A DNA stretch of 64,000 nucleotides from Patescibacteria group bacterium (GTDB lineage Bacteria > Patescibacteriota > JACPGU01), in assembly GCA_028718745.1 (NCBI GenBank), contig JAQULF010000001.1, forward strand, positions 31,666-95,665. Direction: 5' to 3'. Shown one piece after another: positions 2,190-60,431 of this stretch. Under the pieces are notes generated by a model, which did no database searches, was not told the origin of the DNA, and saw only the letters and a list, made by a program, of their open reading frames with translations. Position numbers and translations under genes: made by a program. Within the stretch, counting starts at the first letter, position 1; each line of letters opens with the position of its first letter.

Positions 2190-4028
2190 TTATTTTTTCA
2201 TCAGATCCAAAAACACGTTCGACGGCACATTCACTCTCCCCAATGCCTTCATCTTTTTTTTGCCTTCTTTTTGCTTATTAATCAATTTATCTTTGCGAGT
2301 TCGATCACCTCCATAAAGGTATCCGGCGACATCTTTTTTCATCGCCGACATATTTTCGCGAGCCAATATCCGTGAGCCGATCGCCGCTTGAATAGAAACC
2401 TCAAACATCTGCCTTGGAATTAATTTTTTCAATTTGCTCACTATTTCATTGCCGGCTTTTTGCGCCTCATCCTTATCGACAATTTGGCTCAATGACTCAA
2501 TTTTATCTCCCGCCAAAAGCACATCCATTTTAGCCAAATTTCCTTCTCTTAGCCCTATATGCTCATAATTAAGCGACGCATAACCGGACGAAACCGATTT
2601 GAGATCATCATAAAAATCCTTGATCATTACAGCTAGCGGAACTTCATAAATAATCAAAGCCTTGCTCTCGTCAATATATTTTACTTCACGATAAATCCCG
2701 CGATACCTTCCTAGCATATCCAGAACTGATCCGACGAATGTCTTGGGCAATAATATCTCGGTAGTAACCCAAGGTTCGGAAATTGACTTGGTTCTTTCCA
2801 GCCCCGGAAATTCAGCCGGATTACTTGTCGCAATCTTCTCGCCATTAGTCAGCTCTATTTCATAACCAACAGTCGGATGAGTAATAATTAATTCCAAGTT
2901 AAATTCGCGCTCTAATCTTTCTTTGATAATATCAAGATGTAGCATGCCGAGAAACCCAACGCGAAAACCCAATCCCAAAACAGGGGAGTTTTCACCGGTA
3001 AATTCCAGCGCTGCATCATTCATTTTTAGTTTTGATAATCCTTCACGAAGCTTGTTTAAATCATTGCTGTCAGCCGGATAAATTCCCGCGAATACGGTTG
3101 GTTTTACTTTTTTATAACCCGGTAGGGGACTGATGTCTTCCTTAAATTTTTCAAGAGTAATCGTATCGCCCACTCCAACTAAAGAAATATCTTTGAGCGA
3201 AGTTACAATATAACCGATCTCACCAGCTAAAAGTTTCCCCGATTCCAGCATCCCCGGTTTGAAATAGCCAATCTCAAGCGCTTCTGCTCCCTTTTTTGCT
3301 GATACTAAAAATATTTTTTCGCCGCTTTTTACTTCTCCATCAAAAACGCGAACAAAGGCGATAACTCCGCGGTAAGAATCGTATTTTGAATCAAAAACCA
3401 AAGCGCGCAGTTTATCTGGTTTATCTGCCCGGACAACCCGGACATCCAATGTCGGGGAATTCCCCGACATTGGATGTCCGGGCGCTGGAATTCGCTCAAC
3501 TATCGCTTCCAAAACTTTTTCAACACCTTCGCCTGTCTTGGCCGAAACATAAATCATTTCTTCTTTTTTGAAACCGAAAGTGTTAATTAATTCTCCTGCT
3601 ACTTTTTCTCGATCAGCCGCCGGTAGATCGATTTTATTTATAATCGGGATTAAAGTTAATCCCTGCTCTTGCGCTTGATAGGCATTCGCCAGTGTCTGCG
3701 CTTGAATCCCCTGCGTCGCATCAACGATTAATAACGCCCCCTCAACCGCAGCCAGCGAGCGACTAACTTCATAAGCAAAATCTACATGACCGGGAGTATC
3801 AATCAAATTCAAAATATATTCCTTATAATTCATCCGTGCCGGCTGCAGTTTAATCGTTATGCCGCGTTCGCGTTCCAAATCCATCGTGTCAAGAAGCTGG
3901 TCTTTCATTTCTCTTTTGCTAACCGTTCCGGTCAACTCCAAAAGCCGATCCGCGAGAGTGCTTTTCCCGTGATCAATGTGTGCAATTATACAAAAGTTGC
4001 GTATATTTTTCATAAGTTTAGTGATCAA
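2190..4028 (-). CDS. lepA: Elongation factor 4 (LepA), with in-frame 15-aa palindrome-encoded insertion
   Basis: N-terminal GTPase motifs AHIDHGKST, DTPGHVDF; LepA-specific C-terminal domain; 612 aa. Confidence 0.95.
   Translation of the reverse strand: MITKLMKNIRNFCIIAHIDHGKSTLADRLLELTGTVSKREMKDQLLDTMDLERERGITIKLQPARMNYKEYILNLIDTPGHVDFAYEVSRSLAAVEGALLIVDATQGIQAQTLANAYQAQEQGLTLIPIINKIDLPAADREKVAGELINTFGFKKEEMIYVSAKTGEGVEKVLEAIVERIPAPGHPMSGNSPTLDVRVVRADKPDKLRALVFDSKYDSYRGVIAFVRVFDGEVKSGEKIFLVSAKKGAEALEIGYFKPGMLESGKLLAGEIGYIVTSLKDISLVGVGDTITLEKFKEDISPLPGYKKVKPTVFAGIYPADSNDLNKLREGLSKLKMNDAALEFTGENSPVLGLGFRVGFLGMLHLDIIKERLEREFNLELIITHPTVGYEIELTNGEKIATSNPAEFPGLERTKSISEPWVTTEILLPKTFVGSVLDMLGRYRGIYREVKYIDESKALIIYEVPLAVMIKDFYDDLKSVSSGYASLNYEHIGLREGNLAKMDVLLAGDKIESLSQIVDKDEAQKAGNEIVSKLKKLIPRQMFEVSIQAAIGSRILARENMSAMKKDVAGYLYGGDRTRKDKLINKQKEGKKKMKALGRVNVPSNVFLDLMKK
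3436..3481. repeat. 46-bp perfect GC-rich palindrome (centre GAATTC) inside lepA coding sequence
   Basis: cccggacatccaatgtcggggaattccccgacattggatgtccggg reads identically on both strands; encodes PGHPMSGNSPTLDVR in lepA and the same peptide in the opposite-strand ORF 3386..3571. Confidence 0.9.
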
Positions 4029-6417: not shown

Positions 6418-8205
6418 CTAGAGCTTCTGTAACTCGTAGAATTTTCGATAAGCCCCGCCTCGTTTTTTGATTAGATCTTTATGCTTGCCTTCTTCAACCA
6501 CTCTCCCCTTATCCAAAACCAAGATTCGATCCGCCTTGCGAACTGTGGAAAGGCGATGCGCGATGATGAATGTTGTTCTTCCTGTCATTAATTCCTCAAG
6601 CGCCGCCACTACTTCTCTTTCACTTTTCGCATCCAGCGCCGAAGTCGGCTCGTCTAGAATTAAAATGCGAGGATCTTTCAAAATCGCTCGAGCAATCGCA
6701 ATTCTTTGTTTTTGTCCTCCGGAAAGTTTTACTCCGCGATCGCCAACCAACTGATTGTACTTGTTTCTGAATTTTTGAATAAAGTCATGCGCAAAAGCTT
6801 TTTTGGAAGCTACTAACATTTCTTTGTCGCTGGCTCCAAAACAACCATATTTGATGTTTGCCTTAACCGTATCATTAAAAAGCAAAATCTCTTGCGGCAC
6901 TATAGCAATTTTTCTTCTCAAAAACTCCAGGTCAATTTTCGAATTTTCCACTCCATCAATATATATTTTCCCTTTTTGCGGCTGGTAATAATTGGAAATA
7001 AGATCGGCCAAGGTGGTTTTACCTACACCCGATTCGCCAACTAGTGCGATGATTTCTCCCGGCTTAACGCTAAAGCTGATATCATTCAAAACATCCTGAT
7101 TCTTTTTTTCATATTTGAAAGATACATTTTCAAATTTTACCGATCCCGCGATATCATTCATTTTTACCGCATCTTTTGGGGTATAATTTTCCGGCTTAAC
7201 ATTGATGATATTTTCCGCTCTTTCAACACTGATCAAAATGTTTTGCATATTCTGCCATTTATTAACCATACTGGAAAATGGCGAGAAAAGCATGGCGATA
7301 TAAGTGTTGTACATCATTAGCTGACCAATGGTAATTTGGCCATTCCAGATCAGAATTATGGAATAGGAAAAAACAAATATCTGTACAGCCAATACCATTC
7401 CGCGATAAAAAAGCTGATTTCTCTGCCAAATCTTAAGGTAGTGCAATAGAAAATTAAGTCCTTTTTCTATAAAGATATTTTTTACTTTCTTTGACTCATA
7501 TTCTTCTGCGACATATTGTTTTACATTTTGAATGTTTATCACCACATCATAACTATGGCCATAAGCCTTGTTATAACCCTTATTCATTTTACGGCGCAAT
7601 CCGGCCAAATCAGGAGTAATTTTGAATAGAAGATAGACATAGATAGCCAAAGCTATCACCACAACTGTCGTCAAAAACCAGCTGACAAAGAACATGAAGA
7701 TAAGCGCGAAAATGACTCCCAAAAATTGAGGGAGGAGATCGGCCACTATACCGCTAAAAACATTGTAGATGTTACCGCTGGCTCTATTTAATTTATCCAT
7801 CACATCCCCAAGTTTGTGGTTTTTTGTAAAAGACAAGGGTAATCTCAAAATAGCCGCCACCCCATCATACATATAAGCTACTTCGGCGCTTTCCGCTAAT
7901 AAACTTACCATGCGATCCAGTCTCCAACTAATCAGATCCGCAATTGCTTTTGCCACCGCCCATAAAACGAGGTAAACAAAAACTGCCTTCAATACATAGC
8001 TAAGAAGGTGAATATCGCTAGGTGTCACTATGCCATCAATAACTTTTCCGGAGAGATAGGGAACTACAGTATTAAAAACAGCCACCAATACACTGGCGAC
8101 CGATATCCCGATCAGTTCTTTTTTGTAGCGAATAAAATGTCTTTTCAAATAGCCGCTTTTGGCAACCATCTGCCGAAATGTCAGCTTATTCTTTTTCTTT
8201 TGCAT
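6418..8205 (-). CDS. ABC transporter, fused permease/ATP-binding (type I exporter, MsbA-like)
   Basis: 595 aa; 6 TM N-terminal domain; Walker A GESGVGKTT, signature LSGGQKQRIAIARA, Walker B ILILDEPTSALD. Confidence 0.9.
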   Translation of the reverse strand: MQKKKNKLTFRQMVAKSGYLKRHFIRYKKELIGISVASVLVAVFNTVVPYLSGKVIDGIVTPSDIHLLSYVLKAVFVYLVLWAVAKAIADLISWRLDRMVSLLAESAEVAYMYDGVAAILRLPLSFTKNHKLGDVMDKLNRASGNIYNVFSGIVADLLPQFLGVIFALIFMFFVSWFLTTVVVIALAIYVYLLFKITPDLAGLRRKMNKGYNKAYGHSYDVVINIQNVKQYVAEEYESKKVKNIFIEKGLNFLLHYLKIWQRNQLFYRGMVLAVQIFVFSYSIILIWNGQITIGQLMMYNTYIAMLFSPFSSMVNKWQNMQNILISVERAENIINVKPENYTPKDAVKMNDIAGSVKFENVSFKYEKKNQDVLNDISFSVKPGEIIALVGESGVGKTTLADLISNYYQPQKGKIYIDGVENSKIDLEFLRRKIAIVPQEILLFNDTVKANIKYGCFGASDKEMLVASKKAFAHDFIQKFRNKYNQLVGDRGVKLSGGQKQRIAIARAILKDPRILILDEPTSALDAKSEREVVAALEELMTGRTTFIIAHRLSTVRKADRILVLDKGRVVEEGKHKDLIKKRGGAYRKFYELQKL

Positions 8206-8646: not shown

Positions 8647-8681
8647 TCATTTCACCTCCCCCCGTTTCTTTTTTTCATACT

Positions 8682-9068
8682 TCACCGGTAAACATGATGA
8701 CGGAAATCTTTTGAGCCAGCGGACTTGAAGAAATCCATGGCAACAATCCCGACATCGTAGTCAACAAGATGCTTCGAAATTACTTTTTGCAACTTCTCAT
8801 TCCACGCGTCGTTCAGCCCATAAATAAATATCTGGGTGGCGGTTTTATTTCCGGAGATTTCAGCCTCCACAATCATGAGAGTAATCTTCTCCCGTATCTT
8901 AAGGGGGAGCTTTTTCTTTACTCTCTCAATCGCTGCCCTGACATCCGCTTTTGTCTTCAAAACATTTCCCTCATCGGGGGTAAACACGACAATGTGCGGC
9001 AACTCTTTCACCTCCTCACTTTCTTTTCGACCGAAGTCGTGGAATTTATGCTTTTTTGTAAAAATCAC
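8682..9068 (-). CDS. hypothetical protein (GC-rich cluster gene 2)
   Basis: 128-aa ORF, no recognisable motif. Confidence 0.4.
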   Translation of the reverse strand: MIFTKKHKFHDFGRKESEEVKELPHIVVFTPDEGNVLKTKADVRAAIERVKKKLPLKIREKITLMIVEAEISGNKTATQIFIYGLNDAWNEKLQKVISKHLVDYDVGIVAMDFFKSAGSKDFRHHVYR

Positions 9069-9288
9069 ACATGGTCACGGGACAAGGTCTGGCCATGTTG
9101 AAGGCTTTGTATTTACCCGTTTTCCAGTTGATGGGATAAGGGCAATCGCCGCCTTTCGTTTTTGCCCTTGCGCACGAAAGACATATCGAGATTCTGGTTT
9201 GGTCTGAAGAAAAGGTTATAGTAGGAAGCTTTGATTTCCCTTCCTTTTTCATGTCCGAATACCTCGCACTTTGTATTTTTTGGTTCAT
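9046..9288 (-). CDS. hypothetical Cys-rich small protein (GC-rich cluster gene 1)
   Basis: 80 aa with CxxC...C...C pattern; overlaps next ORF by 23 nt. Confidence 0.35.
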   Translation of the reverse strand: MNQKIQSARYSDMKKEGKSKLPTITFSSDQTRISICLSCARAKTKGGDCPYPINWKTGKYKAFNMARPCPVTMCDFYKKA

Positions 9289-9313
9289 TAATTCTTAATG
9301 TCCGATCTTGGGT

Positions 9314-9441
9314 GGGGAAACTCCGCCCCTACAATGCGTTGGCTCCATGCTCCTGCGTGGAGCCAGTTTGTTCATTGATGTATTAAAAAATCCTTTTAAA
9401 TGCTTTATGTACATTAAGGTTCCATGCGGGAGCATGGAACC
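9314..9441. repeat. Intergenic nest of GC-rich palindromic elements related to the in-frame elements in tsaE and tlyA
   Basis: ggggaaactccgcccctacaatgcg (shares cgcccctacaa-tgc with tsaE element), gcgttggctccatgctcctgcgtggagcc (29/29 identical to tlyA element at 55384-55412), and palindrome ggttccatgcgggagcatggaacc. Confidence 0.8.
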
Positions 9442-9449
9442 AACTACAT

Positions 9450-11279
9450 TTATGAAATAATTATTGCTTCAAATTCCTCGCGTTCAATTACTTCTTTCTC
9501 AAGAAGCACCGACGCGATTTTATCTAAAATATCCTTGTGATTGGTTACGATGCCGTTCGCAACTGTTTCGGCTTTGGTCATAATAATTTGAACTTCATCG
9601 TCAATCGCTTGCGCGGTTTTTTCCGAATAATTTTTGGCTTCAGCAATATCGCGACCCAAAAAAACCATTTCGTCTTTATCATGAAAACTGATCGGCCCAA
9701 GTCGATCGCTCATACCATATTCTTTCACCATTTTACGCGCCATAGAAGTTGCTTGCGTTAAATCATTTTGCGCTCCAGTGGTTAGCTCGCCAAAAATTAA
9801 AATTTCGGATTCGCGACCAGCAAGATAAACTGCGATATCATCTTCAAAAGCGGTTTTTGATTTTAGAACGCGATCAAATTCCGGCGGATTCCAAGTGTAG
9901 CCCAAAGCTCTTCCGCGAGAGACAATGGAAATTTTTTGCACCGGATCAGCATTTGGCAAAAAGTGTGCAACCAGAGCATGGCCGGCTTCATGATAAGCCG
10001 TGATTTTTCTTTCTTCTTCGGTAATAACTTTGCTTTTTCGCTCCGGACCCATGAGGGTTTTTTCAATTGCTTCACCAATATATTCCATGCTGATTGTGGT
10101 TTTGTTATCGCGCGCGGATAATATCGCCGCTTCGTTCAAAAGATTGCGCAGATCAGCGCCGGAAAATCCCGGGGTTTTTTGCGCTATTTTAAATAAATCA
10201 ACATTGCCTTCCAAGGGTTTTGTTTTCACATGAACTTTCAAAATCGCTTCTCTTTCTTTAATATCCGGCAAATCAATCAAAACTCTTCGATCAAATCTTC
10301 CCGGACGAAGTAGTGCCGGATCCAAAACATCGGGACGGTTCGTTGCCGCCATGACAATCACACCGGAGTCGGTATCAAATCCGTCGAGTTCTACTAAAAT
10401 TTGATTCAAAGTTTGTTCTCTTTCATCATGCGATCCGCCAAGTCCTGCTCCTCTTTGACGGCCCACTGCATCTATTTCGTCTATAAAAATAATACAAGGC
10501 GCGTTTCTTTTTGCCTTGGCGAAGAGATCGCGAACGCGTGAAGCTCCGACCCCCACAAACATTTCCACAAATTCCGAACCGGAAATTGAGAAAAATGGAA
10601 CACCGGCTTCTCCGGAAACCGCTTTGGCTAACAAAGTTTTGCCCGTTCCCGGAGGTCCAAGAAGAAGTACCCCCTTGGGAATTTCGGCACCCATATCTTT
10701 ATATTTCTTCGGATTTTTCAAAAAGTCTACAATTTCAACTAGATCTTTTTTGGCTTCTTCAGATCCGGCCACATCTTTAAAAGTGACGCGGGAATCCTGC
10801 AGATTTACTCGAGCGCGAGATTTACCAAAAGACAATGCCTGCTGATTGGCGCCTTGAGCCGATCTCAACATCATCCAAACAAATCCGGCCATCAGTAAAA
10901 ATAGAAGCGCTGTCGGAAGTATATCTAACCAAATGGAACCGGTATCGCTATTTTTAATCTCGATATTGGTTTTATCCGGAGTAATTCCATAAGCGGTCAA
11001 AGAAATAGCCGCTTCCTTGTAGGCAATTTGTTCATTCTTGCCGTCTTTTGCTTCTTTAAGGAAAATATCCAGTTTGTCGCCATCAACCAAAATGCGATCG
11101 ACTTGACCTTGTTTAACCTCTTCAACAACTTGGGAGATATTAACTTGCGTAGTTTTAGTACTAGTCGTTTCAGTTGCTTTGGAATAAGCAAAACTAGCCC
11201 CTATCACCAGGATTAAAATTAGGATTAACCAATTGTTTTTTAGAATCTTTCCAAACCCGTTTTTCTTTTCGTTTGCCAT
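9450..11279 (-). CDS. ftsH: ATP-dependent zinc metalloprotease FtsH
   Basis: AAA+ Walker A GPPGTGKT, second region of homology, HEAGHAL zinc site; start placed at MANEKKNG before N-terminal TM helix (ORF track starts 62 codons upstream). Confidence 0.92.
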
Positions 11280-11430
11280 AATAGATCGATTATAGTATAT
11301 TTTGCCTTTCCTGTCAATTTTTGGCTTGAAAACGGGAAAAAAGTATAAAAACAAAGAGCGGCGACTTTCTGCGAAAGTCGCCGCCATGGGTTTGCTCTGG
11401 ATGATCCGAGAATTGAGCGGGAGGTATTCA

Positions 11431-11625
11431 TTATGGGGTAGCCACGGAGAATTTTTTGGTATCAAACCGTCTTACCAGCACACCACCTCTTGGACCTTTG
11501 AAACGGACAACCGTGATGTCCTTGCCCCTTCTGCCTTTCTCATGGCCAACCTCTACAATACCCGGAATGGTTCTGATCTCGCCATTTCCCAGATTAGTTA
11601 CCTCAAGCTTTTTTGGTAATGTCAT
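11431..11625 (-). CDS. small conserved hypothetical protein
   Basis: 64-aa basic protein MTLPKKLEVTNLGNGEIRTIPGIVEVGHEKGRRG...; not recognised. Confidence 0.35.
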   Translation of the reverse strand: MTLPKKLEVTNLGNGEIRTIPGIVEVGHEKGRRGKDITVVRFKGPRGGVLVRRFDTKKFSVATP

Positions 11626-19559: not shown

Positions 19560-19625
19560 GGTTCGCCCAGTCATCCGACTGGGCGACCGATCGAATGATC
19601 GGTCGATTCCTAGTGGGGATATTTT
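19560..19625 (+). other. tRNA 3-prime-end-like remnant: two GC-rich hairpins plus degenerate T-loop/acceptor copy
   Basis: gcccagt-catccg-actgggc and gaccgatc-gaat-gatcggtc hairpins then ggtcgattcctagtggggata, resembling the tRNA 3-prime end ggttcgattcctggcgaggata. Confidence 0.4.
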
Positions 19626-19832: not shown

Positions 19833-20960
19833 GTGGCAAAAAAATCAGGAAATGAGTATGCGGATGCAGGAGTGGACTACACAAAGCTGGAAGCTTTCAA
19901 AGACATGATGATCGAAGTCGGCAAGCGCACCACGGGATTCCCGAACATTCGCAATGTATGCGTCGTTACTGACGCAATCCATGCGCACGGCGCGGTTTTC
20001 GAGTACACCGGCGATCAGCCTCATATCTGGTGTAAGACTCAGGAGGGGCTCGGAAACCTGAACTGGATCGCCGAGTGGATGCTTCAATTCGACGGCACGA
20101 AACGCAGCCGTTATGATATCCTCGGTCGCGCAGCAGCGCTTCTCATCGCGATTGATGTCATCGCGCAGGGAGCAATGCCGGTAATCTGGACGGATGAAAT
20201 CGCCGCGGGAGACAGTGACTGGTTCACCAACAAACAGAGGGCGGCCGACTATGCACAGGGATGCTTCGATGTCTGCAAGGAAATCGGCATGGCTCTGCCG
20301 GCCGGCGAATCACCCGCGCTCAAGTATCTCATCAAAGCGGAGCCGCCTGTTACAAGTGCTCCGTCATTGAGCGGATCCATAACCGGCATAATCGCTCCGA
20401 AAAGCCGGCTTATCACGGGCGCAAAATTGCGAGCAGGAGATGTGATTCTGGGCGCTCCCTCATCAGGGCTTCATTCTAACGGAATATCGCTCGTGATCAA
20501 GGAGGTCATGAAACTCTCGGATCAGTTCCTTACCAAGCTCAACGGCCAGACAGTGGGCGAGGAATGTCTCATTCCGATTCCATCGTATGTCAAATTGGTC
20601 GAAGCCCTACTCGAAAACGAAATCGAAATCCACGCCATATTGCCGGCAACCGGAGACGGCGTCGGCAAAATCGCGTTCGACAAACGCCCGTTCACCTACC
20701 GGGTCCACACATGGTGGCCAAAGATACCGCCGCTGTTCCTTTTCATGAAAGAACTGGGCGTGACCCTCGAAGGATGCCTCAAAACCTTCAACTGGGGCGC
20801 CGGAATCTACTTCTATGTGCCACGCTCAAGCGTTGACTCGGCAGTGGAAGTCGCCGCGCACGCCGGGTATGATCTGCTCGAACTCGGCCGGGTTGAAGAA
20901 GGAGAACGAAAAACCATCTTCGAGCCGGAAAGCGTCACGCTTCCCCCGCCGGGAGAATAA
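19833..20960 (+). CDS. AIR synthase-related (PurM superfamily) protein, GC-rich, GTG start
   Basis: N-terminal YADAGVDYTKLEAFK like PurM YKDAGVDI; conserved APSSGLHSNGISLV (PurM GxHSNGxSL motif); ORF much GC-richer than surroundings; RBS aaacggggg before GTG. Confidence 0.6.
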   Translation: MAKKSGNEYADAGVDYTKLEAFKDMMIEVGKRTTGFPNIRNVCVVTDAIHAHGAVFEYTGDQPHIWCKTQEGLGNLNWIAEWMLQFDGTKRSRYDILGRAAALLIAIDVIAQGAMPVIWTDEIAAGDSDWFTNKQRAADYAQGCFDVCKEIGMALPAGESPALKYLIKAEPPVTSAPSLSGSITGIIAPKSRLITGAKLRAGDVILGAPSSGLHSNGISLVIKEVMKLSDQFLTKLNGQTVGEECLIPIPSYVKLVEALLENEIEIHAILPATGDGVGKIAFDKRPFTYRVHTWWPKIPPLFLFMKELGVTLEGCLKTFNWGAGIYFYVPRSSVDSAVEVAAHAGYDLLELGRVEEGERKTIFEPESVTLPPPGE

Positions 20961-22257: not shown

Positions 22258-22265
22258 TAAGTTAG

Positions 22266-22333
22266 GATTAAATGATTAAATGAATAAAGGATTGTATTTT
22301 CTAATCATTTAGTCTTTTATTCCTTTATTCATT
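22266..22333. repeat. AT-rich inverted-repeat element (AAATGATTAAATGAATAAAGGA family), copy 1
   Basis: gattaaatgattaaatgaataaagga ... taatcatttag ... tcctttattcatt; related copy at 53490-53578. Confidence 0.7.
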
Positions 22334-22373
22334 GAAATCTAAATGCTATAATAAACAAAAATAAAACAAATCT

Positions 22374-23402
22374 ATGTTGGAAGATTCTACTAAAAAAACT
22401 GTTCTCTTTGAAATTTCGTGGCTAAGTATTATTAAAGTTGTCGCCATTATTCTGGGCGTCTATTTGCTTTTCTATCTGGCAGACATTTTTCTGATCTTGT
22501 TTGTTGTTTTTATTCTAGCCTCCGCCCTTTCTCCTCTGGTAGACACGATGAAAAGCAAACTCAAAATACCTCGGATTATGTCGATCCTTCTAATCTACAT
22601 CGGACTTTTGTTAATTGTTGCCTTGACCATTTATGCCATCATTCCTCCTGCAATAGAGCAGCTGCAAAATCTATCGCAAAATCTACCTGATTATGCTAAA
22701 AAAATAACTTCGCTTTTCAGTTCGCTAAGTGAATCTCCCGTATCAACCACCAATTCTATTCAGTCGGCTTCTTCCACTTTGGGAAATGTAGCCGGAACTT
22801 TCGTTCAATCGGCCGGGACTTTCTTCGGCGGGTTAACTACTGTTTTCTATATTCTAATTTTAACCTTATTTCTGCTTTTGGAAGAAGATGGCATTCGCAA
22901 ATTTTTTATTTCCTTGCTACCCATCAGCCAGAAATCTTATGTTATCGAAGTTAGCAAGAAAGTCGCCGACAAAATGGGAGCTTGGCTTATCGGACAGGTT
23001 TCCTTGATGGGTATAATAGGTTTCGTTACTGCTCTAGGATTGTGGATTATCGGCGTACCTTATGCTTTGACTCTTGGCATTATCGCTTTCTTCCTAGAAG
23101 CAGTACCTACTGTCGGGCCCATCATCGCCGCTATTCCGGCCGTAATTATTGCCTATATGGATGCTCCCTGGAAAGCGGTGGTTGTCCTAATCTTTGCGAC
23201 TTTAATTCAACAATTAGAAAATCAATTTCTTGTTCCAAAAATAATGCAAAAAGCTCTTGGGATTTCTCCGTTTGTAACGCTCGTAGCGCTTCTTGTCGGC
23301 GGTAAACTAGCAGGGGTAATGGGCGTGCTTCTCGCCGTCCCAACCGTCGCTGCTCTCTCTGTTCTATCTAAGGAGTGGCCGAATATCAGGAAAAGGATCT
23401 AG
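22374..23402 (+). CDS. AI-2E family transporter (PerM/YhhT-like)
   Basis: 342 aa, 8 TM, typical AI-2E family architecture; paralog at 27991..28998. Confidence 0.85.
   Translation: MLEDSTKKTVLFEISWLSIIKVVAIILGVYLLFYLADIFLILFVVFILASALSPLVDTMKSKLKIPRIMSILLIYIGLLLIVALTIYAIIPPAIEQLQNLSQNLPDYAKKITSLFSSLSESPVSTTNSIQSASSTLGNVAGTFVQSAGTFFGGLTTVFYILILTLFLLLEEDGIRKFFISLLPISQKSYVIEVSKKVADKMGAWLIGQVSLMGIIGFVTALGLWIIGVPYALTLGIIAFFLEAVPTVGPIIAAIPAVIIAYMDAPWKAVVVLIFATLIQQLENQFLVPKIMQKALGISPFVTLVALLVGGKLAGVMGVLLAVPTVAALSVLSKEWPNIRKRI
23331..23402. repeat. Direct repeat copy 1 (3-prime end of AI-2E transporter gene)
   Basis: about 70 bp, about 85 percent identical to 26690-26761. Confidence 0.75.
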
Positions 23403-26275: not shown

Positions 26276-26680
26276 ATGAAACAACCAAAGAAATTAAATA
26301 ATGAAATTACTTTTTACCAAACACCCGACGGAGGAGTAAATATTGAGGTATTATATGCTGATGAAAACATCTGGCTAACCCAAAAACTGATGGCGGAACT
26401 TTTTGGATGTTCTGCAGATAATATATCTCTTCACTTAAAAAATATTTACAAAGAAAAAGAATTGGATGAAAGTTCAACTACCAAGGATTCCTCGGTAGTT
26501 CAAAAAGAAGGTAATAGAGCGATAAAAAGAAAATTCAACTACCAAGGATTTCTCGGTAGTCCAAACTTTGATAGAGAAAGAATATGAAGTTTATAGAAAA
26601 AAACAAGACAAGTTTTTTGAAAGTGATTTTGATAAAGAGGTAAAAAAACTAATTCAAGAATCCAAAAAGAAAAAGATACG
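26276..26680 (+). pseudogene. RhuM-family protein remnant (internal deletion plus frameshift)
   Basis: 26276-26587 encodes RhuM N-terminus (ITFYQTPDGGVNIEVLYADENIWLTQKLMAELFG...VQKEGNRAIKRK); RhuM-like C-terminus EVYRKKQDKFFESDFDKEVKKLIQESKKKKIRG is in another frame at 26585-26680; full-length RhuM is about 340 aa. Confidence 0.55.
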
Positions 26681-26689
26681 CGGCTAATC

Positions 26690-26761
26690 TGCATGCCGTC
26701 CCAACCGTCGCGGCTCTCTCTGTTCTATCTAAAGAATGGCCAAATATTAGGAAAAGAATTT
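26690..26761. repeat. Direct repeat copy 2 (diverged duplicate of AI-2E gene 3-prime end)
   Basis: gccgtcccaaccgtcgcggctctctctgttctatctaaagaatggccaaatattaggaaaagaatttaa vs gene end at 23331-23402. Confidence 0.75.
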
Positions 26762-26799
26762 AATTGCACTCTCATTTTTTGGCTTATCTAACTTAACTG

Positions 26800-27990: not shown

Positions 27991-28998
27991 ATGCCTCAAT
28001 CCACAAATTCAAATGTCAGTTACGAAATTTCCTGGTCCAGCATCTTAAAAGTGTTGGTTGTTATTGCGTTTATTTATCTGCTCTTTTACTTATCCGGCGT
28101 GATTTTGATGCTTTTTACCGTTATTATCTTGGCTGTTTCCCTCTCTCCAATTGTTGAAAAATTAAAAAACAAGCTCCACATACCCCGAATCTTGGCGATT
28201 ACCATAATTTATATTTTAATTCTGGCTTTTGTCTTTTTAACCGTTTACACTATTGTGCCACCGGTGATGGAACAGGTAAAAAACCTTTATCAGATCTTGC
28301 CGGATTACGCCAAAAATATAGTTCCCTTTTTAAAATCGGTAAATAGTTATAGTCCGGCCAGTAGCGCAACGACAGGTGGGATCGCCCAAACATTAAGCGG
28401 ATTTTTTGGCAGTATTTTAAATTTCTTCCTGATCTTGGTTCTAACATTTTTCTTATTAATTGAGGAAGGTGGTTTTGTTAAATACATCGTTTCGCTTTTT
28501 CCGGTCTCTGATAAAGCTTATGCAATCACCATCGGCAAAAAAATATCCAACAAAATCGGCTCCTGGTTTGCCGGACAGATTTTAATTATGGTAATTATCG
28601 GAGTAGTGAATGCCTTAGCTATGTGGGCCGTCGGAATTCCTTATGCTCTGGTTCTGGGACTACTAGCCTTTATTTTTGAATCGGTACCCAATATCGGGCC
28701 CATTGCCGCTGCTGCCCCAGCCTTGGTTTTGGCCTACATCGATGCCCCATGGAAAGCGGTCTATGTCTTGGTTTTCACTCTCGTTTTACACCAGCTTTCC
28801 AATCAATTTCTAGTACCAAAAGTTATGGGGAAAATTTTGAATATCTCCGCCTTTGTGATAATTTTAGGTTTAATTATAGGAGGGGAGTTAGCCGGAATAA
28901 CCGGTATGATTCTAGCTCTACCCGTAGTAGCTGCCATTCAGGTAATGGCGCAAGAATGGCCGAATATTAAAACGAGAATTCCAAATAATGAAAAATAG
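27991..28998 (+). CDS. AI-2E family transporter, paralog 2
   Basis: 335 aa, collinear with 22374..23402 (ISWSSILKVLVVIAFIYLLFYLS...; C-terminal EWPNIK). Confidence 0.85.
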   Translation: MPQSTNSNVSYEISWSSILKVLVVIAFIYLLFYLSGVILMLFTVIILAVSLSPIVEKLKNKLHIPRILAITIIYILILAFVFLTVYTIVPPVMEQVKNLYQILPDYAKNIVPFLKSVNSYSPASSATTGGIAQTLSGFFGSILNFFLILVLTFFLLIEEGGFVKYIVSLFPVSDKAYAITIGKKISNKIGSWFAGQILIMVIIGVVNALAMWAVGIPYALVLGLLAFIFESVPNIGPIAAAAPALVLAYIDAPWKAVYVLVFTLVLHQLSNQFLVPKVMGKILNISAFVIILGLIIGGELAGITGMILALPVVAAIQVMAQEWPNIKTRIPNNEK

Positions 28999-30246: not shown

Positions 30247-30374
30247 AAACAGATTTTATCATAAATAGCCAGATTTTCCAAGAACAAAAAGAAATCTCGG
30301 CTTGCCGAGATTTCTTTAAAATTGTTTTCTTACTTTCTTGTTTTCTTGCTTTATTGCTTTCTTGTTTTTTTGTC

Positions 30375-30932
30375 CTAAAACTGTACCTTTACCGCTTCTC
30401 TCTCCGCTGCTGCCGCTTCAAACATCAACTTGGGAGTTTTGAATCCTAGAATGCCGGCAACCAACATGGTTGGAAACACAGCAATTTTGATGTTAAATTC
30501 TCGAACATTGGCATTGTAGTATCTTCGAGAAACCTCAATCTTATCCTCGGTTTCGGTCAATTGAGTCTGAAGATCCAAGAAATTTTGATTCGCTTTCAAA
30601 TCAGGATAAGCTTCAGCTACGGCAAAAAGAGATTTCAAGGTGTTGGTTAGCATATTTTCCGCTTCCGCTCTATCAGCCGGAGTCTTGGCATTCATGGCTG
30701 CCGTTCTGGCCTTAGTAACTTCTTCAAAAACTCCTTTTTCATGAGCTGCATAGCCCTTGACTGTTTCAACCAAGTTTGGAATCAGGTCATATCTCCTTTT
30801 TGTCTGCACATCAATGTCGGCAAAAGCCTCATTGCAGCGGACATTTAAATTAACCAATCCGTTAAAAATAGCAATTATCCATAAAAGAATAATGGATCCA
30901 ACTACGATTAATCCAATTACTAGTGATGACAT
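30375..30932 (-). CDS. lemA: LemA family protein
   Basis: N-terminal TM then NGLVNLNVRCNEAFADIDVQTKRRYDLIPNLVETVKGYAAHEKGVFEEVTKAR typical LemA. Confidence 0.85.
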   Translation of the reverse strand: MSSLVIGLIVVGSIILLWIIAIFNGLVNLNVRCNEAFADIDVQTKRRYDLIPNLVETVKGYAAHEKGVFEEVTKARTAAMNAKTPADRAEAENMLTNTLKSLFAVAEAYPDLKANQNFLDLQTQLTETEDKIEVSRRYYNANVREFNIKIAVFPTMLVAGILGFKTPKLMFEAAAAEREAVKVQF

Positions 30933-31212: not shown

Positions 31213-32964
31213 ATGAAAAAAATCCTTTCCTCAATCTTCTTGCTTTCTTGCTTTCTTGCTTTCTTGCTTTCTTGTCCCCCCGCTTCCGCCCGAACCCCCG
31301 ATCAAATTTACGATGATTATGTCCAAGATCTAACAACCGATATTATTGTAAACCAAGACTCTTCCTTAGATATTACCGAAAATATAACCTGGGACTTTGC
31401 CGATATTCCTGATAAACACGGTATTTTTCGAATGTTGCCTACTTTTTATCAGAAAACGAACAGTGAAAAGGTAAAAATACCCATCGAAAATATTAGCGTT
31501 ACCGACCTTAATAATAATCCCATACCATATAGTGAATCGACCAGTTCCGGTATCTTGAGCTTGAAAATCGGCGATGCAGACAAGACTGTCAGTGGGATTG
31601 TGAACTATGTTATTAAGTATAGATATAAGAATACTATCCGTTTCGACAATCAAAATTTTGATGAATTTTACTGGAATCTTAATGGTAATTTTTGGGAAAA
31701 GGAAATTGATAAATTTACCGCCAACATCACTTTTCCATCAGGAATCACAAAAAATAATGTAATTGAAATTAATAAATATGACGGTAGTTTTGGGTCTAAA
31801 AGTAATGTTTTATCAGACTATAAGTGGATCGCTGACAATACTATTCAGGTGACCAGCCAAAAAACTCTGTTGCCAAAAGAGGGCATTACTCTCTCGGTTA
31901 CTTTTCCAAAAAATATCATTTCTCCACCTGTTTTATCGTTTTGGGAAAAATACGGCGATCTGATTCTCGGGCTACTTCTTTTGGCACTGCCTATTCTAGT
32001 CTTTTTAATCTGCTTCACACTGTGGTGGAAATACGGCCGTGATATTGGCCCGGGCCGTGCCGTCGCACCTGAATTTGAAATTCCGGACGATATGAATCCG
32101 ATGGAAATGAGTGTTTTTTTAAGTAACGGCAGTCTTAAGTCCAGCGCTATCTCGGCTGCCATTGTGAACTTAGCAGTTAGGGGGTATTTGAAAATTGAAG
32201 CTGTACCAAAACAGGGAATATTTTCATCTGCTGATACCAAATTGATAAAATTGAACAAAGCGACCGAGAAATTGACTGATGCGGAAAAAAATCTATTAAA
32301 TTATCTCTTGGGAAGTAGCAATGAAGTAAAAATTTCAGACCTAAAAAATCAATTCTATAAATATATTCCAAAACTTAAGGAGACTTGTTTTAATAAACTA
32401 TCCGATCAAAAGATGTTCGAAAAGAAAGGGTTTGGCATTCAGTCAACTATGCTTGTCATCGGCGCTCTCGGGATAGGAGGATTATTTTTCGCCCCAGCCA
32501 TAATCTCTACTCCGATTTTTTATGTGATTTCCATAGTTTCAATTGCCATTATCTTTATCTTTGCCGCTTTGATGCCTAAAAGAAGTCCTGAAGGTGAAGA
32601 CCTGCTGTGGAGAATCAAAGGGTTTAAGATGTACATGATGACAGCCGAAAAATACCGCCAGAAATTTATTGAAAAGGAAGGTCTTTTTGAAAAGTTTCTG
32701 CCTTATGCTATGCTCTTTGGCATTACCGGTCTTTGGATTAGCAAGATGAAAGAAATTTACGGAGAAGAGTATTTTAATACTTATCATCCGATCTGGTATA
32801 CAGGATATATTGGGAATTTTAATATCGATAATTTCAGCAGTCAGCTTTCGGCCGTATCAAGCTCTATGTCCTCAACCATGAGCTCATCTCCTTCTTCTTC
32901 CGGTTCCGGAGGGGGAGGCTTTTCCGGTGGTGGTGGTGGCGGTGGCGGTGGCGGAAGCTGGTAA
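31213..32964 (+). CDS. DUF2207-type membrane protein with C-terminal Gly/Ser-rich tail
   Basis: 583 aa; signal peptide, large extracytoplasmic domain, TM segments, C-terminal SGSGGGGFSGGGGGGGGGGSW; genomic pairing with lemA is typical. Confidence 0.7.
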   Translation: MKKILSSIFLLSCFLAFLLSCPPASARTPDQIYDDYVQDLTTDIIVNQDSSLDITENITWDFADIPDKHGIFRMLPTFYQKTNSEKVKIPIENISVTDLNNNPIPYSESTSSGILSLKIGDADKTVSGIVNYVIKYRYKNTIRFDNQNFDEFYWNLNGNFWEKEIDKFTANITFPSGITKNNVIEINKYDGSFGSKSNVLSDYKWIADNTIQVTSQKTLLPKEGITLSVTFPKNIISPPVLSFWEKYGDLILGLLLLALPILVFLICFTLWWKYGRDIGPGRAVAPEFEIPDDMNPMEMSVFLSNGSLKSSAISAAIVNLAVRGYLKIEAVPKQGIFSSADTKLIKLNKATEKLTDAEKNLLNYLLGSSNEVKISDLKNQFYKYIPKLKETCFNKLSDQKMFEKKGFGIQSTMLVIGALGIGGLFFAPAIISTPIFYVISIVSIAIIFIFAALMPKRSPEGEDLLWRIKGFKMYMMTAEKYRQKFIEKEGLFEKFLPYAMLFGITGLWISKMKEIYGEEYFNTYHPIWYTGYIGNFNIDNFSSQLSAVSSSMSSTMSSSPSSSGSGGGGFSGGGGGGGGGGSW

Positions 32965-33954: not shown

Positions 33955-33990
33955 AGGCGGCCCCGAAGGGCCGCCGAAAAGTTTCAAAGA
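33955..33990. terminator. Bidirectional hairpin terminator
   Basis: aaaaggcggccc-cgaa-gggccgccgaaaag. Confidence 0.6.
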
Positions 33991-34006: not shown

Positions 34007-35015
34007 TCATGCTGCTGTAGCAGCGGGAAACCAGCGGAAGGAGAAACGCTGCGTACCTTCCGCGGAATGGCTAGGACGAGCTCCGCCGACACGGATTCCG
34101 CTGGCATCGGAGCCACCGAAAAAGATCGGGTTGCCATCACGAGAAAGCGCGCGCGTCCAGCTCCAGAGATTTTCGAAGATGTTTTGACCTATCTGTTCGC
34201 GAGTGGCTGCGGAAAAGAGCAACCCTACGGCGGGAGAGGGCGAGCAGAACATCTGGTTTATTTTAAGGCCTGCCAGAATTATGGCGCCTTCTTGCCACTC
34301 GTTCCCTTCGATGAGAAAATTAATTCTGTTGTATTTCGCCTTGTTGAATTCCCGAACCGCTTCTTTGACTTCCATCGGCAGCACTGTCTCTTTATAAATC
34401 TGATTGCAGATGAAATCGCGGTGCATCTGAGTGTGCCGAAGAAAATTTTCTCCACCTGTGTTGGGGATGGGTTGAAGAGAATGCATCATCCAACCGGATT
34501 GTATGGGATCGGTAAAGAAGCTTTCTTTGCCTCCTCCATACCGGTCGGTATCGTAGAGCACCTTGCCCCAGCGTCTTCCTCCATACCGGAGTATGAGCTT
34601 TTCGTAAATCTCCTTCATTGACATGCCGCCCGGCCAGTAAATGAAGAAGTGCGGAAACACCGAATCGACATATCTCTGGAACTCCCATCTTCGGATCATA
34701 ATCGGCGGGAATTTATTGATCCCAATGCCGAAAAGATCACTGATGGTTTCCTTCGTCGCGATGAGCTGATAGCGCCTTTTCCCTGCGATTTCCAGCATCT
34801 CCTTGTAAGGAATCGCAATGGGCGGATCATAGTCAACTATGATTGGCGGCTTCGTTTTTATTGAACCAACTGCCGGATGACCAAACGCTTTCAGAACCTT
34901 CCGCCCGGCCACTATGTCATTAAAATCCTTGCGTGACAACTGGTCCCCTACCATCGCCACGAAATCCGAGAGCTTTTTGTACAGTACCTCCGATATCCAA
35001 TCTTTCTTTTCAGAC
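34007..35015 (-). CDS. hypothetical protein (GC-rich island)
   Basis: about 336-aa ORF starting MSEKKDWISEV; GC much higher than flanks; no recognised domain. Confidence 0.4.
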
Positions 35016-35258
35016 ATAACAACTCCTCTCCCGCTTTCGGCGAGTAGCCCTATCATGTCCGGGCTTTGGACACATTTGCCGCCTTTCGGGCGGTTGACCT
35101 TAGCTTTCAGATTTCAAGGTGCAATTTTATTCTATATTATTCTGGCTTATTTTTCAACATTTCTTGTTATAGCTAAAAAAAATAAATCCCTTGACGATTT
35201 TTTTATAAGATATATAATTAAAACTATACTGAATATATTACCAATAACCGTACGCTAT

Positions 35259-36529: not shown

Positions 36530-36637
36530 AAATGTTTTGTTAATACTAACATTAATTATAACACAACTTAATTGGATGTAAAAAGTTCAAGCTCCCTTCC
36601 GGGAGCTTGGTGTAATGTGACATGGCGCAGATATAAC

Positions 36638-42455: not shown

Positions 42456-44450
42456 ATGAAGAAGAACAAGGCGGGTTCGGCTGTTCCGGTGTTGGAATAC
42501 CCGGAGATCGATCTGTGGAAGAGGAAATCGTCTCCAGAAGATTCCCTCCAGATCATCAACAAGGAAGATTTCCCATTCGATCAGATCATGGAAAATCTGG
42601 GGCTTGAATGCCGAAGATCGCTGGCAGGAAGCTTCGGTATTCGCGACATCACCGAGATCGTGAGGCGTCAGGAACTCATGAAGCTCATCATGTATGAAAG
42701 AAAGCTTTGTGAATTCCTGATCAAGGAGAAGAATCTGGCTACAGATTTCCCCCAAGATCACAACAGCTTCATCCAGTACCACAATCCGGACAGGGTTCAT
42801 AACCCCTTCTGGACAAGGATTCATGAACTGCTGGAAATGCTGGATAGGATGCCAGTTCGCGATGCGGAGCTCGTAAAGCTTCGCACCTTCCTGAAGTCAT
42901 CGCTCAAGTTCGAGGAAATCGAGCGGGTAATGGCGCGGCGCATCATTGAAAAAATGGATGCGATGGCCGTCATTGAGGGAAGTATCACCTTCAAACTGGG
43001 TAAAGCATTAAATACAGATAAGGTGATAAGGAAGCAGGTCTACGGATATCGCATCTACTCGCTTTCACTAAGCAACGCCGGTAAACAGCCATACCCGGCG
43101 TGGACGAAGCAAGCGGGCTGTATGAAAACGATCAAGATTACCCGTATCGGCGAAATCTATACCGACTGGCGTAACGATCAGGAGCTTGCGACGGCGCTCA
43201 AAGGCAGAGAAATCACGGATCTGAGCGAAGAAATGATCCGGGATATAAGCGATGCAACCAATCTGTTACTCCAGAATTGGGATGACAATCGCATCAAAGA
43301 CACAGAATTAGGGAGAGAAATCCGGAACAGGTTCAATGGCGGTATAGTTAGTGTGAGCTTCGCGTACAGCATCGAAGGGCTGAAGCTCCATATTTACAAT
43401 CTCGAACCGACGCCGGAAATCCGCTCCTTTTCCTATGAGTACCCCGTGTGTATTCCGCGCAGGGAGGGCAAGAAAATCATCACTATGCGTGCACGGATTG
43501 CGACGAAAACGGAACAGTTCATTCGGCAGATGAACGCGGGTGCGGTGGCATATTTTCTGAAGGACGGAAATATCGAGTTCTTCGATAAAGAGCACCGCGT
43601 CAGCTCATCCAGATTCGACGAAGAGCACAAGCACTTTGCTCTCCCGAATATCTTCAAAGATCCCGAGATCAAGCCGATCGCGGATGCATTGCTGAAGTTG
43701 CGCAGGTTCTGCGCTGACCAGTTTGAAATCCTGGGACAGCTCGCGGAGCTTGTCAGCAATTGCAAGGCGCTCGCGGACAGAATCGGATCGCCCATAACCT
43801 TCCCGGAAATCTTGCCGGATTCACAAAACATCGTCGCATTTGAGGAACTATTTCCCGTTCATCTGGCATTGCAAAATCGGGGCGCAGACAGTGGAAAGAT
43901 TGTGCCGATCAGGCGACTCCCGCCTGTGAACGGATCGATGTTGGCACTGACAGGTGCGCACGGCGGCGGCAAAACCGTGACCGAGCTGACGCTCGCCATC
44001 AATCTTTGGCTGGCACAGAGCGGTCTGCCGGTATTCGGCAAGGGTTTCAAATTCAACATCAAAGATACAATCGGGCTGGTCTTCATCAATCGCGGAGAAG
44101 GATCCACCTGTGAGCAGCTCGTGACGAAAATCATGGAAATCCTGGTTGTGCTCAAAGTATCCGACCACAAGAAAATTCTCGTCATCATCGACGAGTTGGG
44201 TACGGGTACACAGGAGGAGAGCGGACTCGAGCTGGGCAGGGATCTGCTCAAAAAGCTCCATGCCGAACACACCAGTGTGCTTTTCAGCACGCAGATTACA
44301 CTACTAGCGCAGTTTGCAGTGGACAATCTCGGCGCGCAGAGCTTCATGTTCGCGCCCGACCACAGCATTCTACCTGGCATCGGAAAGGGAGGCATGGAAG
44401 ATCTTCGATCGAGACTGGGAGTGGATAAACTGCTCTTGGTCGAAAATTGA
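42456..44450 (+). CDS. Large GC-rich protein with C-terminal MutS-domain-V-like ABC ATPase
   Basis: Walker A LTGAHGGGKTVT, Walker B/D-loop VIIDELGTGTQEESGLELG resembling MutS/MutS2 nucleotide-binding domain (GPNMGGKS ... DEIGRGTSTYDG); about 450-aa N-terminal region unrecognised; strong GC3 bias unlike host. Confidence 0.55.
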   Translation: MKKNKAGSAVPVLEYPEIDLWKRKSSPEDSLQIINKEDFPFDQIMENLGLECRRSLAGSFGIRDITEIVRRQELMKLIMYERKLCEFLIKEKNLATDFPQDHNSFIQYHNPDRVHNPFWTRIHELLEMLDRMPVRDAELVKLRTFLKSSLKFEEIERVMARRIIEKMDAMAVIEGSITFKLGKALNTDKVIRKQVYGYRIYSLSLSNAGKQPYPAWTKQAGCMKTIKITRIGEIYTDWRNDQELATALKGREITDLSEEMIRDISDATNLLLQNWDDNRIKDTELGREIRNRFNGGIVSVSFAYSIEGLKLHIYNLEPTPEIRSFSYEYPVCIPRREGKKIITMRARIATKTEQFIRQMNAGAVAYFLKDGNIEFFDKEHRVSSSRFDEEHKHFALPNIFKDPEIKPIADALLKLRRFCADQFEILGQLAELVSNCKALADRIGSPITFPEILPDSQNIVAFEELFPVHLALQNRGADSGKIVPIRRLPPVNGSMLALTGAHGGGKTVTELTLAINLWLAQSGLPVFGKGFKFNIKDTIGLVFINRGEGSTCEQLVTKIMEILVVLKVSDHKKILVIIDELGTGTQEESGLELGRDLLKKLHAEHTSVLFSTQITLLAQFAVDNLGAQSFMFAPDHSILPGIGKGGMEDLRSRLGVDKLLLVEN

Positions 44451-44491
44451 TTTCCGAGCCATACCTATTCAATCACTTCAAGTTCACAGTT

Positions 44492-44525
44492 CCGCCGCGG
44501 ATAAATCCCGCGGCGGATTTTTTTA
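44492..44525. terminator. Bidirectional terminator between MutS-like gene and typA
   Basis: ccgccgcgg-ataaat-cccgcggcgg then T-run. Confidence 0.7.
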
Positions 44526-53482: not shown

Positions 53483-53489
53483 AAAAAAA

Positions 53490-53578
53490 TGATAAATAAT
53501 TATGAATAAATGACTAAAAGATTAAATGATTGAAAAAACTGAAATTATAGTCCTTTATTCATTTAATCATTTATTCAT
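53490..53578. repeat. AT-rich inverted-repeat element (AAATGATTAAATGAATAAAGGA family), copy 2
   Basis: atgaataaatgac ... gattaaatgattg ... tcctttattcatttaatcatttattcat. Confidence 0.7.
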
Positions 53579-53673
53579 GACGATCTTTTCTAATTCTATT
53601 CTAAATCCCCTAAAACATCAACTCTTTGTAAAAAAACTAGCATTCTTACCATTTTTTTGCTATAATACTTCTT

Positions 53674-58647: not shown

Positions 58648-58712
58648 AATGGCCCCTTTCTAAAAAATTATTTTTATATTAATTGGATTGTTGCTTTCTT
58701 GTTTCCTTGTCT

Positions 58713-60247: not shown

Positions 60248-60431
60248 GACGACACCTCCATATAAGATTTTAAGGCGCGGTCTTCAGCCTTAATTAGTTA
60301 AATTATAGCACAATATAGCAAAAAAACAAATTAAATTTGTTTTTTTGATTTCTTGCTTTTTTGTTTTCTTATCCTATTTCCCCAAATTCCTCAACGCTTC
60401 TTTGAGTTTTTTTCGGAGTCTTTGACATTGC

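Follow-up and report, generated by a model that had tools for sequence, protein, structure and literature searches.

Repetitive extragenic palindromes (REPs), the inverted pairs of them called REPINs, and the REP-associated tyrosine transposases (RAYTs) with which they occur have been described in E. coli and Pseudomonas (Bertels and Rainey, 2011, PMC3116915, PMC3337134; Messing et al., 2012, PMC3479197), and Di Nocera et al. (2013, PMC3733652) give the arrangement REP-RAYT-REP as the one that defines such systems. The same paper reports REPs that lie in-frame within genes, as singletons and as dimers, from Opitutus terrae, Rickettsia conorii (the Rickettsia palindromic elements RPE-4/6) and other species. 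Rickettsia palindromic elements (RPEs) are put at ~100–150 bp and described as Rickettsia-specific in PMC10969869 (after Ogata et al., 2000), and hairpin repeats of organelles can also invade coding regions (PMC2800124, PMC6649704). Literature searches on palindromic or REPIN elements in Patescibacteria, or the candidate phyla radiation (CPR), found no relevant paper. Here we describe a nest of GC-rich palindromes in the 161-bp intergenic spacer (9289–9449) 3' of ftsH, in a 64,000-nucleotide stretch of contig JAQULF010000001.1 from a Patescibacteria group bacterium (that whole stretch being ‘the window’ below). The nest is very probably a REP cluster, consisting of a decayed GTAG-tagged singleton and a RAYT-less, REPIN-like doublet, and spread by a RAYT system. 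REP-RAYT systems and intragenic in-frame REPs being already known, the family to which the doublet belongs (family 1) is a further REP family, in the CPR.

An earlier note on this DNA had described the nest as ~130 bp of intergenic, AT-poor sequence holding three elements. The intergenic position is borne out for 9289–9449, and the three sequences quoted are found where they had been placed, with zero chance matches expected per search pattern in shuffled sequence. There are indeed three GC islands (59–68% GC), but the richness is not uniform: the stretch has 46% GC overall, against 39% for the 64-kb window, and the islands surround one 53-nt spacer of 21% GC. Nor are the elements of three kinds. 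The islands represent two REP families, elements 2 and 3 being inverted copies of one unit (Table 1); all three copies at this locus are extragenic.

In family 1, GTT precedes a hairpin (10-bp stem, 4-nt loop) of the form GGCTCCATGC-TCCT-GCGTGGAGCC. Element 2 carries the main 24-nt core, which is the commonest variant among related copies. In element 3, a C-G pair of the stem is replaced, in a compensatory change, by T-A, and this T/A variant is found also in L018, L028 and L032 (L numbers denote loci fetched for comparison). A repeat search recovered the arms of the doublet (9338–9388 and 9394–9444) as a 51-nt inverted repeat, 71% complementary, with perfect 10-bp termini (GTTGGCTCCA...TGGAGCCAAC). 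Relative to shuffled sequence the doublet folds with z = –5.8 as RNA (–55.5 kcal/mol) and z = –6.2 as DNA; Rfam gave only matches far below threshold, to eukaryotic miRNA hairpin models, which reflect the long-hairpin shape. It aligns end to end with the doublet of L018, and similar family-1 doublets occur in L002, L006, L007, L010, L018 and L028. The copies, being solitary or in inverted pairs and scattered, do not form a CRISPR array. A third copy in the window lies in tlyA, where the 29-mer said in the earlier note to be common to both loci does recur (55387–55415, 2 mismatches); the match extends to 39 nt (55384–55422), 90% identical to one arm of the doublet and 86% complementary to the other.

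At the inverted pairs in the window, L018, L027, L028 and L032, a unit of the T/A-stem variant (GGTTCC...GGAACC) is matched with one of another kind, which is, except in L028, the C/G variant (GGCTCC...GGAGCC). This pairing brings to mind IS200/IS605 elements, whose left and right ends are distinct. In L027 (135–720), the two inverted units bracket a 180-aa open reading frame (ORF) beside recX with a weak, sub-threshold match to DUF6886; it may be cargo flanked by REPs, or no more than a gene that happens to lie between two of them.

That a real repeat family exists, as had been proposed, is clear from its dispersal. One scan of GTDB representative genomes found 15 copies of the exact 24-nt core in 13 loci of three CPR metagenome-assembled genomes (MAGs), and one scan of JGI/ENA metagenome contigs, some from groundwater, found 17 more. 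This amounts to ~30 non-redundant sites in four CPR genomes and metagenome contigs, with unrelated flanks; no match was found to the core in a plasmid collection, and none (0) among IMG/VR viral contigs. The GTT, which lies just beyond the search pattern, is invariant in the window and the three MAGs (18 of 18 copies), and a relaxed search, which added diverged copies with other loops and other inner stems, showed GTT(G) in 38 of 42. Two types of tail follow the hairpin, ATYTTGTT or nnnATGTACAWTAAAG. Across ten distinct variants of the stem, 99% of cells pair and compensatory double changes occur in four of the ten pairs, a result reached by 0 of 500 shuffles, which argues that the hairpin has been maintained. 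The same core is common to genomes whose LepA is only 53–54% identical to that of the window. The window's TlyA is identical to a protein annotated from a Patescibacteria group bacterium MAG, on a 209-kb contig, and its nearest relatives are from Patescibacteria and Microgenomates.

The GTDB records of these three MAGs (CAYNCE01, CAZAVD01 and CAZFWC01; loci L001–L013) are titled ‘uncultured Gammaproteobacteria bacterium’ and have 25–35% GC. Aquifex and Thermus score above E. coli against their LepA, whose best database matches are Patescibacteria, Kuenenbacteria, Komeilibacteria and Falkowbacteria. Judged from these protein sequences, the gammaproteobacterial label looks wrong, and the MAGs look to be CPR bacteria.

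The link between family 1 and a RAYT comes from related contigs. On L015, inverted exact cores (1084–1107 and 1700–1723) bracket a 181–193-aa ORF; L017, L029, L030 and L031, from groundwater and other metagenomes, are the same sequence as L015. The ORF (L015/L029) matches the NCBIfam model REP_Tyr_transpos (NF047646) at 107.1 bits (cutoff 80, E = 6.7e-31) and Pfam Y1_Tnp (PF01797) at 36 bits (cutoff 23), and the IS200 model at 27.5 bits. A 70%-identical RAYT lies between family-1 hairpins in L032, with GGTTCC...GGAACC upstream and GGCTCC...GGAGCC downstream, so that RAYT adjacency is seen on two independent contigs. The RAYT has 307 homologues of ~180 aa, the named ones being from Patescibacteria lineages and some annotated RayT. 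Searched as a single sequence it matched nothing in the PDB; a profile of 25 homologues had a sole match, 4er8 (E. coli TnpA-REP), to which it aligns at the HUH motif and at the YIxxNPV tyrosine region, H65, H67 and Y145 being invariant. The inner tails of the window doublet match both inner flanks of the L015 RAYT gene: of the two tails in the spacer, AGTTTGTTCATTGATG... corresponds to AAGTGTTCATTGAAG... and ...GCTTTATGTACATTAA to ...ATTTTATTGTACATCTG. Because inverted copies bracket a RAYT on two independent contigs, and because the core is dispersed with unrelated flanks, we take family 1 to be a REP family; because of its RAYT-flank tails and its end-to-end alignment with the L018 doublet, we take the window doublet to be a RAYT-less, REPIN-like derivative.

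In L032, an 18-nt direct repeat AAAAAATCTGGAGCTATC (7893–7910 and 8650–8667) brackets the whole REP-RAYT-REP unit. Its second copy runs on as a terminator-like hairpin, an arrangement that would result had the unit landed in a terminator or duplicated one.

Element 1 belongs elsewhere. Its similarity to the tsaE element, which the earlier note had pointed out, is real and is clearest on the minus strand (GTAGGGGCGGAGTTTCCCCACCC against GTAGGGGCGGGGTCACCCCGCCC in tsaE), where element 1 differs from the left unit of tsaE by one substitution in each arm. The motif GTAGGGGCG occurs five times in the window (0.10 expected), and four of these copies, at both ends of the tsaE insert, at the ribosomal protein S6 site and at element 1, directly precede a stem-loop GGGC-nnnn-loop-nnnn-GCCC. 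Family 2 thus has GTAG directly 5' of an 8-bp stem (GTAG-GGGC...GCCC), the inner four pairs of which vary from copy to copy yet stay complementary. Intact GTAG units fold at –12 to –18.5 kcal/mol and element 1 at –7.2, for which reason we call it decayed. Further members occur in L015/L029, L017, L021 and L024, and no cognate RAYT was seen. The hairpin GTAG-GGGCGGGG is found also on GC-rich non-CPR viral contigs, so family 2 is a member of a broad GTAG-REP superfamily, rather than lineage-specific or restricted to the CPR. The IMG/VR contigs concerned (L033–L046, 53–65% GC) carry the core GTAGGGGCGGGGTnnCCCCGCCC in up to four copies in 10 kb, GTAG...CTAC doublets included. The single family that had been drawn over the lepA, tsaE, tsaB, tlyA and ftsH loci therefore gives way to at least two: elements 2 and 3 and the tlyA copy form family 1, and element 1, tsaE and S6 form family 2. 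No link to either family was found for the 46-bp palindrome in lepA or for the tsaB hairpins.

Table 1. Features of the ftsH 3' spacer and related sites, in window coordinates.
Feature	Position	Strand	Remarks
Family-1 REP unit (element 2)	9338–9364	plus	GTT + GGCTCCATGC-TCCT-GCGTGGAGCC; T-G wobble in stem
AT-rich spacer, two unit tails	9365–9417	none	21% GC
Family-1 REP unit, inverted (element 3)	9418–9444	minus	GTT + GGTTCCATGC-TCCC-GCATGGAACC
REP doublet (REPIN-like)	9338–9444	none	107 bp; two inverted units, long-hairpin pairing possible
Element 1, decayed family-2 singleton	9310–9332	minus	GTAG-tagged REP; reads GTAGGGGCGGAGTTTCCCCACCC on minus strand
Family-1 REP singleton in tlyA	55386–55422	plus (gene minus)	antisense to gene; GSTQEHGAN, residues 173–181
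Family-2 REP doublet in tsaE	49463–49523	plus	GTAG-hairpin ... hairpin-CTAC, in-frame
Family-2 REP singleton in S6	58938–58961	minus	GTAGGGGCGCAATATATTGCGCCC; inside C-terminal extension of ribosomal protein S6
Perfect 46-bp palindrome in lepA (lepA 2190–4028, minus)	3437–3482	none	two inverted hairpins around GAATTC
ftsH, upstream gene of spacer	9450–11465	minus	Pfam Peptidase_M41, AAA, FtsH_ext; stop codon 9450–9452
Small hypothetical ORF, other spacer border	9046–9288	minus	no Pfam match

Most family-1 copies lie within genes. About 20 of the ~30 exact non-redundant copies (about two thirds) are in long ORFs, so that the extragenic location of REPs does not describe the family, and ~10 are intergenic. 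In compact genomes of this kind coding sequence forms the bulk, and the intergenic third therefore probably still represents enrichment for spacers. The genes concerned are bona fide housekeeping genes (lepA, tlyA, ligA, tgt, alaS, rsmD, a U32 peptidase and a glycosyltransferase), and copies within coding genes always keep the frame. In 15 of the 19–20 intragenic copies the gene runs antisense to the unit and reads it in a single frame, as GSTQEHGAN; of the rest, four lie in a different frame or strand, with one ambiguous. With one in six expected, the bias has a binomial probability of 4e-9 to 1.4e-8; the lepA site 3 copies of L009 and L010 are orthologous, which leaves the conclusion unaffected.

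Comparison with solved structures and with orthologues shows what such copies do to proteins. TlyA has GSTQEHGAN as a 9-aa insertion relative to PDB 3hp7 and 3opn, at a hypervariable loop whose length varies across 38 homologues; in an AlphaFold model (mean pLDDT 91) the block with the insert, residues 171–180, averages 62 and lies between helix 159–172 and strand 184–189. TsaE has ~20 extra residues (68–91) relative to solved TsaE structures. LepA is 16 aa longer than its solved homologues, corresponding to the 46-bp palindrome (3437–3482), which carries no GTAG or GTT tag and had no other copy in the data examined; the same loop carries family-1 doublets in L007 and L010. Among lepA orthologues 83–86% identical, one site is occupied by the unit in two genomes and empty in two others, and at another site three genomes have perfect copies and one has a decayed copy.

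The TlyA and LepA alignments also show other recurring peptide cassettes in the same loops of different CPR genomes: YKVLSIK; ILDIKEKKDKKYPISNIQYP; ESRIMDGKNHNSKFMLHDS; FPISNFQF...NKSQITN; GGNLDPRVKPEDDSS / SFPRRRESL; and ETRHAASL. Their recurrence at the protein level suggests that they may be translations of further palindromic repeat families and that such insertions could be widespread in Patescibacteria. In two CPR LepA homologues of ~800 aa (P0261 and P0265), PF13366 is present as an additional domain, pointing to an insertion in lepA of much greater size.

How, then, does the locus compare with the systems described? The likeness to REP/REPIN-RAYT systems lies in short imperfect palindromes, many dispersed copies, inverted doublets with a spacer, inverted copies on both sides of a Y1/HUH RAYT gene, the absence of target duplications and, at ftsH, a position just past a stop codon. 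On the other hand, family 1 has an invariant GTT(G) rather than GTAG, its host is a CPR bacterium, most of its copies (about two thirds) are intragenic and in-frame, with one frame dominant, and the core is common to genomes as distant as the LepA identities above indicate. Family 2 is close to the GTAG/CGTC REPs of PMC3733652, with GTAG directly 5' of its stem, GTAG...CTAC doublets and in-frame singletons and dimers of ~8–21 aa in housekeeping genes, but differs in its variable, still complementary inner stem and in the lack of a visible cognate RAYT. Like IS200/IS605, the system has a Y1 HUH transposase and subterminal hairpins that differ between its left and right ends, and target duplications are absent; however, its RAYT belongs to a distinct family (107 bits with the REP_Tyr_transpos model, 27.5 bits with that of IS200), and it is the hairpin ends that multiply, not the gene. 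Finally, the SPRITE elements of Streptococcus pneumoniae (PMC10969869) and the organelle hairpin elements (PMC2800124, PMC6649704) likewise have a GC-rich stem-loop followed by a T-rich tail, but these are unrelated sequence families with no known transposase association.

By analogy with E. coli TnpA-REP and with IS200/IS605 (PMC3479197, PMC6006769, PMC3116915), a RAYT encoded elsewhere in the genome would bind the single-stranded hairpin, cut beside the invariant GTT(G) of family 1 or the GTAG of family 2, and copy or move units without target-site duplication; following the REPIN literature, the doublet would be the multiplying unit and singletons its remnants. The role of source or sink locus that the earlier note allowed the nest is a conjecture. 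Since these genomes are almost entirely coding, many copies would land in genes, and would survive there only if the frame is kept, if the loop peptide is harmless and hydrophilic, and if the terminator-like orientation is kept out of the mRNA. In sense orientation the unit is terminator-like: its stem is stable, the T-G wobble can pair in RNA, and the tail is rich in T, whereas the opposite strand has a C-A mismatch at the wobble position and no U-run after it. The 24-nt core contains a stop codon in none of its six frames. The alternative frames encode hydrophobic or cysteine-rich peptides (such as VGSMLLRGA, LAPCSCVEP and WLHAPAWS); GSTQEHGAN is hydrophilic and would suit a loop. We thus infer that the dominant orientation and frame result from selection against premature termination and disruptive peptides; the transposase might also prefer one strand relative to replication and so add to the bias.

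Among the rival explanations, the one that survives best, although we consider it very unlikely, is that the hairpins are encoded by the host as ordinary 3'-end signals of ftsH, stabilizing the mRNA or serving as an intrinsic or bidirectional terminator, and involve no mobile DNA. Only 5 nt separate the unit at 9418–9444 from the ftsH stop codon, and in the ftsH transcript it has the sense orientation. The plus-strand unit was flagged as terminator-like, and a T-rich tail such as ATTTTGTT follows most copies; REPs themselves are typically found <20 bp downstream of ORFs (Di Nocera et al., PMC3733652). Yet on the ftsH strand UUAAUGUA stands after the unit in place of a U-run, the unit there was not called a terminator, and a 3'-end signal of ftsH would not be expected as the same 24-nt sequence at ~30 unrelated sites, two thirds of them intragenic and mostly antisense to the gene, nor around a transposase gene. 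A terminator role is compatible with a REP as an added side effect rather than as its origin, and the unit past the ftsH stop codon would probably act as a 3'-end hairpin, stabilizing the transcript or terminating it weakly. A REP that near a stop codon can reportedly lower translation of the upstream gene in E. coli, as Liang, Rudd and Deutscher are said to have found in 2015.

Somewhat less probable still is a classical miniature inverted-repeat transposable element (MITE), or a relative of the RPEs, moved by a DDE-type transposase that recognizes terminal inverted repeats. The 107-bp doublet, with its perfect termini and long hairpin fold, could be read in this way, and the in-frame copies in ORFs recall RPEs. 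However, terminal inverted repeats are present here with no variable target-site duplication: a scan over all boundary offsets showed just the conserved GTT...GTT, which is internal to the unit. That absence fits Y1/HUH elements, which are expected to lack one. In addition, singletons of 27–35 nt far outnumber doublets among the loci fetched, and the sole gene with a transposase signature seen between inverted copies is the Y1/HUH RAYT. The earlier note had likened the elements to RPEs inserting in-frame into ORFs, and as a description of behaviour this holds for tlyA (+9 aa), tsaE (~+20 aa) and lepA (+16 aa): as in RPEs, palindromes stand in-frame in unrelated essential genes of a small, gene-dense genome and encode a conserved peptide. 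Family membership does not hold. We reject it on the host (Patescibacteria, not Rickettsia), on the size of the unit (27–35 nt, with a 107-bp doublet) and on the RAYT adjacent on related contigs, a separation made by the description of RPEs rather than by consensus alignment, and RAYT linkage is not something that the RPE definition requires.

The dominance of one peptide raises the question of whether selection acts on GSTQEHGAN itself rather than on a DNA element, which seems to us very improbable. Although the same peptide recurs in 15 of the intragenic copies, the ~10 intergenic copies and the four genic ones in other frames or strand are left unexplained, and the nucleotides are identical, synonymous positions included, across unrelated proteins and across genomes as far apart as those compared by LepA. 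Moreover, the stem covaries in the manner of RNA or DNA, and in the TlyA model the peptide is part of a low-confidence surface loop. Least probable of all is an origin by local template-switch replication errors, with the sharing of sequence due to coincidence or assembly artefact, since identical 24-mers are present in independent assemblies (GTDB MAGs from three SRA studies, and JGI, ENA and Logan contigs) with the frame always kept in genes and a chance expectation of zero, even though the lepA palindrome, perfect and unique in the data examined, is of the kind such errors might leave.

Several observations weigh against a REP cluster spread by a RAYT. Family 1 lacks the GTAG/CGTC tag by which Di Nocera et al. 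(PMC3733652) define REP superfamilies, the 64-kb window holds only three family-1 copies, and tblastn found no RAYT gene in it, so that a cognate RAYT in the window's organism is assumed. Two lepA sites gain a net 4–7 aa, less than the 35-nt unit and no match to a clean insertion of it, so that simple insertion there is at most putative, and codon alignments of lepA from L007, L009 and L010, with loops too diverged, gave no exact insertion boundaries. That the units move, where they are cut and how they might affect ftsH expression are likewise matters of inference.

If the nest is such a REP cluster, then a REP/RAYT system is placed in the Patescibacteria, whose tiny genomes are an unexpected setting for selfish or semi-domesticated repeats. 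It would also explain puzzling short insertions in CPR housekeeping proteins, where spurious motifs such as GSTQEHGAN might otherwise be taken for lineage-specific features, and the bias of orientation and frame offers a natural experiment on which insertions protein and mRNA tolerate. The three public MAGs labelled Gammaproteobacteria are flagged as CPR bacteria along the way. More tentatively, and with rather more doubt than belief, one might imagine a CPR REP-RAYT system that persists mainly in coding sequence, its REP shaped to encode a benign loop peptide, as a recurrent generator of loop-length variation in LepA, TlyA, LigA and AlaRS. That the core is common to lineages as distant as their LepA indicates would imply either horizontal spread or an unusually long-lived recognition between RAYT and REP; if true, neither would fit the view of REPINs as strictly vertical and extragenic.

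As to the neighbourhood of the spacer, Pfam gave no match for the small ORF at its other border. Inside the 5' end of the mechanically called ftsH ORF, the minus strand has a palindrome with a 12–13-bp stem and a T-run (11385–11357), then a promoter matching the sigma-70 consensus at 12 of 12 positions (11317–11289). The true ftsH start is probably further downstream, and the palindrome near 11385 is probably the terminator of the upstream gene, rather than an intragenic insert. The GC-rich, intergenic hairpins at 11358–11384, 19563–19605, 33956–33975, 36588–36609 and 44491–44517 look like ordinary terminators, not REPs.

The window has repeats of other kinds as well. Two intergenic AT-rich arrays (22258–22340 and 53481–53599) have an 8-nt period (GATTAAAT / GAATAAAG and complement) and internal inverted repeats, are 76–77% complementary to each other, and may be protein-binding sites. 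Short tandem arrays of another 8-nt unit, TTTCTTGC-like, are found at 30311–30383, 31229–31285, 58672–58728 and 60334–60382. A 37-nt hairpin-containing repeat, GAAAGTTCAACTACCAAGGATTCCTCGGTAGTTCAAA, has two copies (26468–26504 and 26529–26565) that are 92% identical and 61 nt apart. The 68-nt repeats at 23334–23401 and 26695–26762 (90% identity, 3.4 kb apart, with a partial third copy at 28952–28980) are probably the conserved ends of paralogous genes. Finally, three genes, at 19833–20960 (AIR-synthase-related), 34007–35056 and 42456–44450, have 50–55% GC in a 39% GC genome and may be foreign DNA.

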